Shown piece by piece: positions 8,757 through 15,339 of a DNA stretch of 64,000 bases. Within the stretch, counting starts at the first letter, position 1; the number at the start of each line of letters is the position of its first letter. The translations under genes were made by a program, and so were the position numbers. Where the stretch lies: the NCBI RefSeq assembly GCF_054482595.1, contig NZ_CM137008.1; one strand, 5' to 3'. The notes beneath the pieces are model-generated. The model made no database searches and was not told the origin of the DNA. It saw nothing but the letters and a program-made list of their open reading frames with translations.

Positions 8757-10070
<1,314 letters not shown>

Positions 10071-10090
10071 GACTGACTTTATCTGATTTA

Positions 10091-10121
10091 AAAATGCCAG
10101 CCTCCGGGCTGGCATTTTTTA
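10091..10121. terminator. Rho-independent terminator shared by convergent eno and TPM operon
   Basis: aaaaa tgccagcc tccg ggctggca tttttt; GC stem flanked by A-run and T-run, so it works in both directions. Confidence 0.8.
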
Positions 10122-10129
10122 TGGTTGAG

Positions 10130-11023
10130 TTACCAGCGGCCGGATGCGCCGCCACCTCCAGAAGAACCGCCCCCGCCGCTAAATCCGCCGCCACTTGAGC
10201 CTCCACCGGAAGAGGATGAAGAAGAACCTTTTCTTGAAGCTCTTTCTTTACTGAGTTTTTTGTATTTGGCGCGTAGCTTTTTATTGACGATAAGCCAAAA
10301 AATAACCAGTGGTACGATCGCAAAAGGCGTTAACATACCGCAGGCAACGATTAAATTGGTCCATGGTCCTGGCTCGGCAACATAGAGGAATACCATCCCG
10401 TAAATGGCGCCAGTGAGAGTGATCCAGGGTAAATTCGACGGATCGGTAAAAACAATAAAATATGAAAGTACCGCCAGCAATATAATTACAGCAAGCGATA
10501 ATGGAATAGGGGGATTGATACTGTAATAATCCCCCCTGTCTTCCGGTAATTCACCATTTAACAGAAGCGCGCCGATATTTTCGCTTGCCAGTGTTAATCC
10601 ACCCATCAGGTCATCACTTTTGAAGGCAGGGATCAATATATCCCTGATAATCTTCGCCGCTTGCAGGTCGGTAACCACCCCTTCCAGCCCGTAGCCAACC
10701 TCAATACGAACAGCATGATCCTCCCAGGCAACCAGAAGTAAAATACCATCGTTTCTCTGCTTATCTCCCAGTTTCCAGCTATCAAAAACCCTTGTAGCAT
10801 ATTGTTCAATGGAATCGTCTCCGGTGGACGGCACTACTAATACAGCGACCTGCGCCCGTGTTTTATGTGTAATATCCTGCAGTTGCTGTGTCAGTGATTG
10901 TTGTTCAGAAGTGCTTAACGTACCAGTAATATCGGTCACCTGTTGGCGCAGTTCCGGCACAGCAATTTGCTGGGCAAGCCCAGGAAGACACCACAAAGTG
11001 AATAGAATAAAGATTAAGCGCAT
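10130..11023 (-). CDS. ygcG: TPM-domain (YgcG-like) membrane protein, paralog 1, with Gly/Ser-rich C-terminal tail
   Basis: ORF 10130..11035; likely ATG at 11021-11023 giving MRLIFILFTLWCLPGLA signal peptide; TPM core GILLLVAWEDHAVRIEVGYGLEG; predicted TM helices; tail SGGGGSSGGGGASGRW. Confidence 0.8.
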   Translation of the reverse strand: MRLIFILFTLWCLPGLAQQIAVPELRQQVTDITGTLSTSEQQSLTQQLQDITHKTRAQVAVLVVPSTGDDSIEQYATRVFDSWKLGDKQRNDGILLLVAWEDHAVRIEVGYGLEGVVTDLQAAKIIRDILIPAFKSDDLMGGLTLASENIGALLLNGELPEDRGDYYSINPPIPLSLAVIILLAVLSYFIVFTDPSNLPWITLTGAIYGMVFLYVAEPGPWTNLIVACGMLTPFAIVPLVIFWLIVNKKLRAKYKKLSKERASRKGSSSSSSGGGSSGGGFSGGGGSSGGGGASGRW

Positions 11024-11028
11024 TACGA

Positions 11029-12177
11029 TCACCAACGGCCGGATGAACCGCCGCCTCCTGAAGAACCGCCACCACCGCGGAAAGAATTTCTCGACGAAGA
11101 GCGAGAGTGAGCATTACGATTCCCCGTTTTCCTGTTGCTTTTTTCTCCTGATCCCAGCTTAAGATTGCCAGTAAATTTGGCCACAATGATCAGCAGAACG
11201 ATGCCAGCAATGGTTATTGGACCGATAAAATGATCAATTAACCCAATAATTGTTGAGATGAATGCAATATCTTTAATACTGGCGAACACCAGGCACCATC
11301 CCACAATAATTATCAGCATCACGACAAACAATGAATTTCGTCCTGATTCACGAACCTGCGGAGTCTTCTTTTGTTTTTTCACTTTAGCGTTTTTATTTTT
11401 TGGGGCCAGCATCATAGGAAATACGCGGCACAAATTAAAAACTACCGCGAGACGCTGCTTGCAGGTTGTTGCTAACAATAAACTAAAACAAACGATCGAC
11501 ACCCGCCGAATGATGACATCGTCCTGAAAGGAGAAAAACCAGACCATAGGGGTAATCATCGATATCATCCATATGCCACGCCGTGGGCGGCTGGCAAATC
11601 GCCAGAGGACAACGATGGCAACGATCATCAGCAGTGTCCAGGCAAGACATGGCAGCGAACGTTGCGGATTAGCAAACAGATGATTGGCTAAAGCATCCAA
11701 AGGGCTAAGGTTCGCTTTGATATGGGTAAACTGTGCGATGCTTTCAATTCCGCCCGTTAATCCAGCAAAGAGATTGTTTTTTTCGAATTCTGGCTGCATA
11801 TGGTAACGAACAATTTGCGCAGCTTGTTCCGGCGGCAACATCTGTTCCAGTCCATGTCCAATCTTCATTGACGCCAGCCCTTCCGGCCATACGACGAGAA
11901 TTAAGATACCTTCGCCATATCGCTTCTCTCCAACGGGTTTCCAGTGATATACCCCGTATCTCTGCGAGGCTGCAAGTTTAATGTTTTTGCCCCCTGTGGT
12001 CGGCGTAACCAACACGGCCACCTGGAAGTGGTTTTGCTGCTCGAGAGTCTGTAATTGTTGAGTTAAAGCAGTTTGTTCTTCTGTCGTTAATGTCCCGGTT
12101 AAGTCAGTCACTGAAGGCAATCGTTCAGCGAATACCTGAAAACCGCATAGCATCAGAAGTAAGAGAAAAATACGCAT
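11029..12177 (-). CDS. TPM-domain membrane protein, paralog 2 (382 aa, extended membrane region)
   Basis: MRIFLLLLMLCGFQVFA signal peptide; TPM core GILILVVWPEGLASMKIGHGLEQ; several hydrophobic segments; Lys-rich linker; tail GGGGSSGGGGSSGRW; stop 5 nt from paralog 1 start. Confidence 0.75.
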   Translation of the reverse strand: MRIFLLLLMLCGFQVFAERLPSVTDLTGTLTTEEQTALTQQLQTLEQQNHFQVAVLVTPTTGGKNIKLAASQRYGVYHWKPVGEKRYGEGILILVVWPEGLASMKIGHGLEQMLPPEQAAQIVRYHMQPEFEKNNLFAGLTGGIESIAQFTHIKANLSPLDALANHLFANPQRSLPCLAWTLLMIVAIVVLWRFASRPRRGIWMISMITPMVWFFSFQDDVIIRRVSIVCFSLLLATTCKQRLAVVFNLCRVFPMMLAPKNKNAKVKKQKKTPQVRESGRNSLFVVMLIIIVGWCLVFASIKDIAFISTIIGLIDHFIGPITIAGIVLLIIVAKFTGNLKLGSGEKSNRKTGNRNAHSRSSSRNSFRGGGGSSGGGGSSGRW

Positions 12178-12191
12178 ATCAATTCCTTTTG

Positions 12192-13115
12192 TTACCAGCG
12201 CCCGGAAGCGCCACCGCCACCAGATGAACCGCCACCACCGCTAAAATTGTCATTGTCGAATGAAGAGGATGACGATGATGAATAGTGGGAGAAAGAATTG
12301 CTTCTTGTATGGCGTGATGGCTGGTTGGCATCACGCATCAAATCCCGAACTTTTTTGCCGAAGGGGGTAAAAGCGATGGCGACAGCCAGGAACGGTGTGG
12401 CGAAGCAGAGTAATGTTGTGAGTACTCCCCAGCTTCCGCTGAAACCTGCTATAGGTAAAACAAAGGCCAGTACAATAGCTGCGAAGCAAATTACTCCCAG
12501 CGTTTTGATATATCCTCTGGCAGAAATAAACGTCAGTACTATCGCCCAGGCTAACAAGGCCCACCAACCGCTAAAAGGTAAAGGGTGATCGGCCGGTGCT
12601 ATCGTCGCTAAATTATTCCCTGCCAAACGGTTTTCAATATCGCTGAGTCCCTTTTGCAAGCCGCCAGCAAGATCACCATTTTTAAATGCCGGAATAATAC
12701 TGTTGCGAATAATTTGCCCGGACTGCGCATCCGTAATAATACCTTCCAGTCCGTAACCGATTTCAATACGCACGGTATGATCCTGCCAGGCGACTAACAG
12801 TAGAACGCCATCATCGCTGTCTTTATCACCCGGTTTCCAGCTATCGAATACCCGCGTTGCGTACTGCTCGATGGTTTCATCGCCTGTTGTATCAACCACT
12901 AACACGACCAACTGTGCGTGGTTTTTTTGCGTCAGGGCTTTAATCTGGTTGGTCAGGGTGTTTACTTCGCTGTTTGTTAATGTGCCGGTTAAGTCATTCA
13001 CATACTTGGGGGATTCAGGTACTGGAATTTGTGTGGCAAACACAGATGAACAGAAGAAAGCCATAAGGAAGATAAAATTTCGCACAGAACTTCCCCGCTT
13101 AATGAGCATTAGCAT
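12192..13115 (-). CDS. TPM-domain membrane protein, paralog 3
   Basis: 307 aa ORF; TPM core GVLLLVAWQDHTVRIEIGYGLEG; TM helices; tail SGGGGSSGGGGASGRW; start ATG at 13115 or 13109, overlapping the lemA 3' end. Confidence 0.75.
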   Translation of the reverse strand: MLMLIKRGSSVRNFIFLMAFFCSSVFATQIPVPESPKYVNDLTGTLTNSEVNTLTNQIKALTQKNHAQLVVLVVDTTGDETIEQYATRVFDSWKPGDKDSDDGVLLLVAWQDHTVRIEIGYGLEGIITDAQSGQIIRNSIIPAFKNGDLAGGLQKGLSDIENRLAGNNLATIAPADHPLPFSGWWALLAWAIVLTFISARGYIKTLGVICFAAIVLAFVLPIAGFSGSWGVLTTLLCFATPFLAVAIAFTPFGKKVRDLMRDANQPSRHTRSNSFSHYSSSSSSSFDNDNFSGGGGSSGGGGASGRW

Positions 13116-13701
13116 TCTGGCTAAAATCTATTGTTGGGGCTTTACTTACTGCGGCGACATCATCCGGTAAATAATTTTTCTTTGGCGTGTAATCCATGAC
13201 CTTTGCGGTTAATACAGCGGGGAATTTGCGGATAGTGACATTATATTGTTCAATGGCTTTAATATATCTTCCTCGCGCAACGGCAATTCTATTTTCACTT
13301 CCTTCGAGCTGTACCATTAAGTTTTGATAGAGTTCCTGAGATTTTAACTCAGGGTAACGCTCACTAATTATCGTTAACTGACCGAGAGTGCGAGTCACCT
13401 GCGCTTGAGCCTGTTGCCAGGCTTGTAATTTTTGTTCATCTCCCGGAGTTTGCTGAAGATCGCTACTGGCGCGATTAGCCTGGCTACGAGCCAATGTTAC
13501 GGCTTCCAGTACATCTCGTTCATGGCTGGAATAACCTTTAATGCTGGCGACAAGATTAGGAATAAGATCGGCGCGACGTTGATATTGATTCAATACCTCA
13601 GACCAGGAGGCGTTAACCTGCTCATCATAGGTTTGAATATCGTTATATCCACAGCCTGATAAATTGAAAATAAATATAATTACGATGAATATTCTGAGCA
13701 T
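13099..13701 (-). CDS. LemA-family protein, probable lipoprotein
   Basis: 200 aa ORF MLRIFIVIIFIFNLSGC with lipobox LSGC; LemA-like helical region; first gene of lemA-TPM-TPM-TPM operon. Confidence 0.75.
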   Translation of the reverse strand: MLRIFIVIIFIFNLSGCGYNDIQTYDEQVNASWSEVLNQYQRRADLIPNLVASIKGYSSHERDVLEAVTLARSQANRASSDLQQTPGDEQKLQAWQQAQAQVTRTLGQLTIISERYPELKSQELYQNLMVQLEGSENRIAVARGRYIKAIEQYNVTIRKFPAVLTAKVMDYTPKKNYLPDDVAAVSKAPTIDFSQNANAH

Positions 13702-14883: not shown

Positions 14884-15339
14884 GAGTTCCCCGCGCCAGC
14901 GGGGATAAACCGGCCTGGCGATTTCTCGTCAGGCCTTGCGGTGTGAGTTCCCCGCGCCAGCGGGGATAAACCGTCAGTAAAGCGGCGCCCACTGATATCG
15001 GATTAGAGTTCCCCGCGCCAGCGGGGATAAACCGAGGGGCAGGGAGTGACGCTGGAGCAGGCGATCGAGTTCCCCGCGCCAGCGGGGATAAACCGGGAAA
15101 TTAGGCAAATGTGAACACGGCGGCCCCGAGTTCCCCGCGCCAGCGGGGATAAACCGCCAGTATTTTGTCGTGGATTGCGGGATCACCAGAGTTCCCCGCG
15201 CCAGCGGGGATAAACCGTTGAGTTTGTTCGTAACAACGCGGGTCATCTGGAGTTCCCCGCGGCAGCGGGGATAAACCGGGTACAAAAGAGGCCCCATTCT
15301 GGCAGGGCTCAAGTTCCCCGCGCCAGTGGGGATAAACCA
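14884..15339 (+). CRISPR. Type I-E CRISPR array A: 8 repeats, 7 spacers of 32 nt
   Basis: Repeat gagttccccgcgccagcggggataaaccg at 14884, 14945, 15006, 15067, 15128, 15189, 15250 (c13g variant), 15311 (degenerate terminal); exact 61-bp period. Confidence 0.97.

Follow-up and report, generated by a model that had tools for sequence, protein, structure and literature searches.

A C-terminal 17-mer that covaries with the TPM domain is best read as a tethered docking element in TPM proteins encoded beside lemA

We analysed a 64-kb window of an Escherichia coli chromosome (64,000 nucleotides from contig NZ_CM137008.1 of RefSeq assembly GCF_054482595.1, 100% identical to strain XH990), which carries on its minus strand, between eno and queE, the gene lemA followed by three genes for TPM-domain proteins, here called P3, P2 and P1. 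An initial annotation of this DNA had noted that all three paralogs end in the same Gly/Ser-rich tail terminating in GRW, and had suggested a shared recognition, processing or assembly signal rather than a passive linker. We found that the conserved unit is not GRW but a positional 17-mer, [FWY]-S-GGGG-x-[SF]-GGGG-A-S-G-x-W-COOH, which recurs across phyla and two of whose variable residues covary with the TPM domain of the same protein. The reading that fits the tail best is that of a tethered element for docking or assembly, and not that of a passive linker, a sorting signal or a degron. We consider it fairly likely that the 17-mer docks on a TPM domain of its own type, completing or closing that domain, and that it thereby probably holds TPM proteins in a LemA assembly. 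The genes were already annotated and the TPM family was already known; the tethered terminal docking peptide that we propose would be new to it.

The open reading frame (ORF) translations end as the initial annotation had quoted them: SSSSSGGGSSGGGFSGGGGSSGGGGASGRW for P1 (ORF 10130-11035), NSFRGGGGSSGGGGSSGRW for P2 (11029-12177) and SSSSSSSFDNDNFSGGGGSSGGGGASGRW for P3 (12192-13115). The basic, Ser-rich stretch described before each tail was likewise seen in all three ORFs, as a K/R-rich helix followed by a Ser/Gly linker in P1 (10184-10282, minus strand), a basic/Ser-rich linker in P2 (11083-11172, minus strand) and a basic, Ser-rich low-complexity linker in P3 (12246-12356, minus strand). 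The paralogs share 35-44% pairwise identity overall and are identical at 15-17 of the 17 tail residues, with the consensus F[SR]GGGGSSGGGG[AS]SGRW. The terminal 17-mers of P1 (10133-10183, minus strand) and P3 (12195-12245, minus strand) are both FSGGGGSSGGGGASGRW and match the family motif exactly, and that of P2, FRGGGGSSGGGGSSGRW (11032-11082, minus strand), deviates at -16 (R) and at -5 (S), where these residues are minority states of the family. The underlying DNA differs, as had been claimed: over the last 17 codons the proportion of synonymous differences between paralogs (pS) was 0.47-0.60 and that of non-synonymous differences (pN) 0-0.056, which indicates purifying selection on the peptide and not recent gene conversion. 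Thus, it is the peptide rather than the DNA that is preserved in the paralog tails. K-12-type YgcG is only 41% identical to P1, yet its last 25 residues are the same.

Homologs were searched for with tail-less queries, which makes the presence of a tail in the matches an independent observation. Matches with identities as low as ~40% retain a ...GGGGxxGGGGASGxW end. When the TPM domain alone was used as the query against representatives of 50%-identity clusters, 109 of 150 proteins ended in W, and most of those that did not were fragments or frameshifted products. Counted back from the C-terminus, position -17 is aromatic in 73% and -16 is S in 68%; -15 to -12 are G (88-100%); -11 is variable; -10 is S (63%) or F (35%); -9 is G (88%); -8 to -6 are G, though these three were fixed by the filter that selected motif holders; -5 is A (90%) and -4 is S (99%). 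At -3 the residue is G (88%) and at -1 it is W (99%), with a variable residue between them (R 38%, S 34%, G 11%, D 7%, N 6%). Further upstream than -17 nothing is conserved by position, and the sequence is only of low complexity, with G and S at ~40/40. In a 116-sequence alignment the invariant columns were five residues of the TPM core together with G289, G290, G294-296 and W301; the R of GRW is outside this invariant core. The homolog alignment that had been put forward as a way of refuting the initial annotation therefore came out for conservation, and the proposed invariance of GRW holds among the paralogs and enterobacterial relatives but not family-wide. In Escherichia albertii (P0017-P0021) an in-frame 7-residue deletion takes out one GGGGSS unit, leaving ...FSGGGASGRW.

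The same 17-mer terminates a protein of known structure. BA41 of Bizionia argentinensis (PDB 5ANP), which is membrane-anchored and encoded beside LemA and BA42, belongs to the same family and has the same architecture as the TPM proteins of the window, and its deposited sequence ends in ...GGGGFGGGGASGGW (end GGGGASGGW); the crystal structure resolves only ~145 residues, the TPM domain. A model of the tail is absent from Pfam and NCBIfam. The sole match was a sub-threshold one, to the YxzE-like putative bacteriocin family PF25184 (23.5 and 23.8 bits, where 40 are needed), over the third transmembrane (TM) helix and the Gly/Ser region; this looks like a compositional resemblance. In the literature on YgcG, the TPM domain, LemA and BA41/BA42, with the original BA41 paper outside our coverage, we found no description of the motif, and none of the positional 17-mer, its restriction to TPM proteins or its coupling to the domain. 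[quoted passage not shown]

One genome per species was then scanned for DNA encoding GGGGA[ST]GxW followed by a stop codon, which gave at least 120 loci from Pseudomonadota, Bacteroidota, Verrucomicrobiota, Omnitrophota, Parcubacteria, Nitrospinota and other groups; the counts from these loci, here and below, are among the matches listed. All 111 motif-ending ORFs that were not cut by the end of their locus contained a TPM domain, which was preceded by an N-terminal signal peptide or hydrophobic segment in 98 of the 111. Not one of 278 tailed TPM proteins lacked a hydrophobic segment between domain and tail, and a search for soluble members without any TM segment found none. The usual context is lemA and then the tailed TPM gene, with a BA42-type gene, encoding a small TPM protein without tail or signal peptide, on either side of the tailed gene. 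In the 50 fully visible loci of other species, LemA adjoined the tailed gene in 45, with a median gap of 8 nt, and a BA42-like gene lay beside it in 39 (~78%). These two, LemA and a second TPM gene, are the conserved neighbours; neither a protease nor a sortase was among them, and no reader gene was conserved nearby. The suggested shared signal thus survives as a conserved terminal signal of which the 17-mer is the unit and for which 'assembly' fits best, whereas for processing or a separate recognition factor we found no evidence: the motif occurs only on TPM proteins (111/111) and coevolves with their own domain.

The strongest evidence for docking comes from this coevolution. The TPM domains of ~270 distinct tailed proteins were profile-aligned and each variable tail position was compared with every domain column. 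Tail position -10 covaried with hidden Markov model (HMM) column 61, which is F84 in helix alpha2 of P1 (codon 10784-10786, minus strand), with a mutual information (MI) of 0.645 (z = 9.9; the next column reached 0.31). Where the tail has S at -10, column 61 was F in 129 of 136 proteins, and where it has F, column 61 was A, G or V in 119 of 125; sequences carrying the E. albertii 7-residue deletion explain the apparent exceptions. Position -2 covaried with column 85, the first residue of strand beta4 (A108 in P1; codon 10712-10714, minus strand), with an MI of 0.53 against 0.34 for the next column. Here the swap is one of charge: a K/R tail was combined with a neutral column in 111 proteins and a neutral tail with a K/R column in 123, while 33 had the charge in neither place and 3 in both (Fisher P = 4e-41). 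Of 92 disjoint close pairs with unlike tail charge, 71 showed the compensating change in the domain and 0 the opposite one. On a neighbour-joining (NJ) tree built without the tested columns, at least 25 changes were counted at position -10 and at least 20 at column 61, but only 25 in the joint state of the two, so that the switches at these two sites were coordinated and repeated. Judged from aligned sequences, the volume swap and the charge swap together are the classical signature of contacting residues.

Both coupling rules are obeyed by P1, P3, K-12 YgcG and the Klebsiella ortholog; in P3, column 61 is F with S at -10 and column 85 is T with R at -2. The aromatic residue at -17 showed a weaker covariation with HMM columns 6, 9 and 13 (MI 0.33-0.36, null 95th percentile 0.20, z = 3), which lie in the extended segment at the N-terminus of the TPM domain, at about P1 residues 29-36; either a wider interface or phylogenetic signal may account for it.

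Structure prediction points the same way. In an AlphaFold2 (AF2) model of full-length P1 made with the 116-sequence alignment, the TPM domain and three helices were confident, and residues 265-290 had a predicted local distance difference test (pLDDT) score <50, that is, the linker was disordered. Confidence returned at the tail, with a mean pLDDT of 79 over residues 291-300 and 96 at W301, and DSSP assigned a strand to residues 295-300. All the other strands of the model belong to the TPM domain, and beta4 (108-113) equals the tail strand in length, so the end of the tail would pair with the TPM sheet; we infer this pairing, and the exact interface, from the DSSP assignment together with the covariation. 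The P1 model superposes on 5ANP with a template modelling score (TM-score) of 0.92 (target-normalised), and the TPM fold also fits 7TBR and 3PTJ. A further match of the fold is to a subunit of the respiratory CIII2CIV2 supercomplex of mycobacteria (6ADQ chain J, 8OVC chains V and a; E ~4e-3 to 8e-3).

We therefore propose a tail in two parts. The first would be a disordered, low-complexity tether or leash of variable length and composition, and the second the strictly positional C-terminal 17-mer, which would dock on a TPM domain of its own type. Its last six or seven residues would add a beta-strand beside beta4, with the terminal Trp buried, and residue -10 would pack against the helix alpha2 position occupied by F84 in P1. 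The docked domain may belong to the same chain, to a neighbouring protomer or to a paralog, and docking in cis or in trans is something that we can only infer. Once docked, the tail would complete or close the TPM domain and would probably build an assembly with LemA. A P2-like gene of Klebsiella (L122:5911-6696) has lost most of its TPM domain and has no Pfam match left, but it still encodes the signal peptide and first TPM motif, the membrane region and a tail that is intact, SFRGGGGSSGGGGASGRW; an intact paralog is adjacent. The tail is kept despite the loss of the domain, which hints that tails may dock in trans on a neighbouring paralog.

Such docking would resemble the binding of C-terminal ligands by PDZ domains and donor-strand complementation in chaperone-usher pili, in that a tethered terminal peptide is predicted to add a strand at the edge of a sheet with an aromatic residue buried, and strand addition of this kind could link subunits in trans. 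There is no homology with either system, however, and the Gly-rich tail is unlike PDZ ligands or pilin donor strands. A further difference is the membrane region that invariably separates the TPM domain from the peptide.

This membrane region is the source of the main difficulty, and it heads a number of observations that weigh against docking on the protein's own type of TPM domain. Signal peptides put the TPM domains in the periplasm. In P1, P3 and K-12 YgcG three robust helices follow and then a K/R-rich stretch (9 K/R in 19 residues in P1), so the tail should start in the cytoplasm, opposite the TPM domain. The number of TM segments was odd in 99 of the 111 family members, although this is a crude count and an unreliable one, because in many lineages the second helix is weak and rich in Gly. 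Apart from topology, P2 violates the rule linking -10 to column 61 (V in the column, S in the tail), and the number of independent events counted above depends on an NJ tree from ~130 columns. In addition, we ran AF2 with a paired alignment on a BA42-like protein (from locus L036) fused to the last 40 residues of the tail of its operon partner; the linker was disordered and the last five residues formed a strand with a pLDDT of 92. A confident tail strand was thus also obtained on a paralog that does not coevolve with the tail, so AF2 docking is unspecific to TPM type.

In members with two clean helices (L027, L010, L066 and L081) the tail would emerge on the same side as the TPM domain, and family-wide the K/R density is the same immediately after the last helix as immediately before the first, so that the positive-inside rule leaves topology undecided outside Enterobacteria. 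We found no experimental topology of YgcG in the literature. A possible resolution is that the anchor crosses the membrane an even number of times and topology prediction fails for this family; another possibility is that docking takes place in some other manner. The conflict between predicted contact and predicted topology therefore signifies either a systematic failure of prediction for the family or an unusual route of the chain across the membrane, and both would be informative.

If the predicted topology is taken at face value, the end of the tail could instead be a cytoplasmic short linear motif that recruits a cytoplasmic partner, in most species the BA42-type paralog of the same operon and in E. 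coli some other partner. We regard this as unlikely, though it has several points in its favour: the tail is predicted to be cytoplasmic, a BA42-like gene stands beside the tailed gene in most loci (39/50, as given above), its products lack signal peptides, and AF2 gave the fused tail a confident terminal strand on the L036 protein. What argues for docking on the own-type domain is that the tail covaries with that domain and shows no such relation to the partner. No column of the BA42-like partner stood out (top MI 0.34, null 95th percentile 0.30, in a small sample with 11 K/R tails), and the BA42-like Phe homologous to column 61 (F51) is invariant whatever residue the partner carries at -10. 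Moreover, a tail-less BA42-type TPM gene is absent from the 64-kb window, where the three tailed genes are the sole TPM matches, yet the tails there are strongly constrained.

A third possibility for reconciling contact with topology is that the Gly/Ser linker re-crosses the membrane by a protein path, so that the 17-mer completes the periplasmic TPM domain. The last TM helix would exit into the cytoplasm (in E. coli at the K/R-rich helix) and the linker, made of small residues and nearly uncharged, would return; the path could be provided by the TM bundle of the same protein, by an oligomer or by LemA. We think this quite improbable. If true, the linker would complete a loop that encircles the membrane anchor, and through it the TPM domain would be coupled to the state of the membrane region. 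A short hydrophobic patch (e.g. VPPIIFGG) was considered as a general re-crossing element and rejected, being present in only 21% of linkers and absent in E. coli. A patch of this kind, such as [FY][VI]PPII[FW]GG, follows a basic stretch in L011, L034, L040, L091 and others, and its strict PP form was found in only 4 of 266.

The recognition or processing signal raised by the initial annotation could also be a C-terminal sorting, processing or degradation signal, which could mean a sortase or exosortase type of signal, a lipidation or cleavage site, a C-degron or a PDZ ligand, and a flexible tail that ends in an invariant aromatic residue does resemble PDZ ligands and C-degrons. LPXTG, PEP-CTERM and GlyGly-CTERM are likewise conserved C-terminal motifs on envelope proteins. 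In these, however, the motif comes first, then a TM helix and a basic tail, and many protein families carry them, whereas in the window the order is TM region, basic stretch, linker and motif, and the motif is confined to TPM proteins. A signal of the sortase or exosortase type requires a TM helix and basic tail after the motif and diverse cargo, and neither was found. The motif lies at the extreme C-terminus after the TM region, its carriers are all TPM proteins, its conserved neighbours include no protease or sortase, and a generic signal would show no covariation with cargo-domain residues that are buried or at an edge; we accordingly consider a signal of this kind very improbable.

That the whole tail is a passive, compositional low-complexity linker or a DNA-level repeat, its shared ending due to common ancestry, is the least probable explanation, since the last 17 positions are position-specific at no more than 50% mutual identity (most clearly -5, -4 and -1), the peptide is kept although synonymous sites are nearly saturated, and the motif covaries with TPM residues. 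The description is contradicted for the 17-mer and is apt for the region upstream, which is pure G/S/F/R/D low complexity and carries no positional signal. At the DNA level, the E. albertii in-frame deletion of a GGGGSS unit indicates slippage, and an E. coli allele boundary falls within the tail-coding DNA: window positions 10050-10211 are 95-99% identical to locus L121, and this identity is confined to the tail-coding end and the DNA downstream, which places an allele or recombination boundary inside the tail-coding sequence.

LemA and TPM (YgcG/BA41) modules occur in a very wide range of bacteria, including E. coli, and their function is not established. [quoted passage not shown] Structural work so far has dealt with the isolated TPM domain and treated the tail as low complexity. 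If the 17-mer belongs to the domain or links protomers, truncated constructs miss a structural element and the published activities may not reflect the native state. The swap pairs F84/S292 and A108/R300 of P1 open docking to direct genetic and biochemical testing in E. coli. In a YgcG family protein of Cupriavidus necator, G253W and W253G arose in two adaptive-evolution studies under salt or metal stress.

The cluster in the window begins with lemA (13099-13701, minus strand), whose product has the lipobox LSGC, matches PF04011 (E 5e-48) and is annotated in RefSeq as a LemA family protein. It is followed on the same strand by P3 (12192-13115; 307 aa), with a signal peptide, TPM domain, three hydrophobic helices, basic/Ser-rich linker and 17-mer; by P2 (11029-12177; 382 aa), with a divergent TPM domain and a larger multi-helix membrane region; and by P1 (10130-11035, RefSeq start 11032; 301 aa). 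In P1 a signal peptide precedes the TPM domain (33-156), after which come helices 179-196, 199-219 and 224-250, a basic helix (252-267), the linker and the 17-mer. All three proteins have a signal peptide or hydrophobic segment N-terminal of the TPM domain, and the hydrophobic segments between domain and tail number three helices in P1 and P3 and more in P2. Pfam TPM_phosphatase (PF04536) matched P1, P2 and P3 with E-values of 3e-38, 3e-21 and 4e-41 (131, 76 and 140 bits; gathering cut-off 22.1). The photosystem II assembly factor Psb32/TLP18.3 likewise has an exported TPM domain and then a C-terminal TM anchor, but, unlike the proteins of the window, no C-terminal extension; assignment to the Psb32 equivalog (NCBIfam NF047379) was rejected at 31 and 34.5 bits against a cut-off of 160. 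The complete four-gene cluster was present in 1102 of 5426 complete E. coli genomes, and most others carry yqcG-ygcG at the same site.

In the identical strain XH990, P3 is annotated by RefSeq (Prokaryotic Genome Annotation Pipeline, PGAP) as a partial pseudogene 'missing C-terminus' (~12414-13085), whereas the ORF in the window is intact, with 307 codons including the tail; the low-complexity tail may be the cause of the misannotation. The BA42-type paralogs have a conserved C-terminal motif of their own, HFP...NELP[DN]x (loci L004, L036, L043, L060 and others), and some of them carry a two-helix hydrophobic insertion within the domain. In three tailed proteins (L010:1573-2796, L066:5047-6396 and L081:1904-3505) a zinc-ribbon-like domain of ~130 residues with four CxxC pairs sits between two robust TM helices and the Gly-rich tail, and would be extracytoplasmic by TM parity. 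Finally, a CRISPR array lies downstream of queE from ~14900, annotated as direct_repeat in the identical RefSeq record, and the ORF 14974-15312 within this region repeats the peptide LSPLARGTL.

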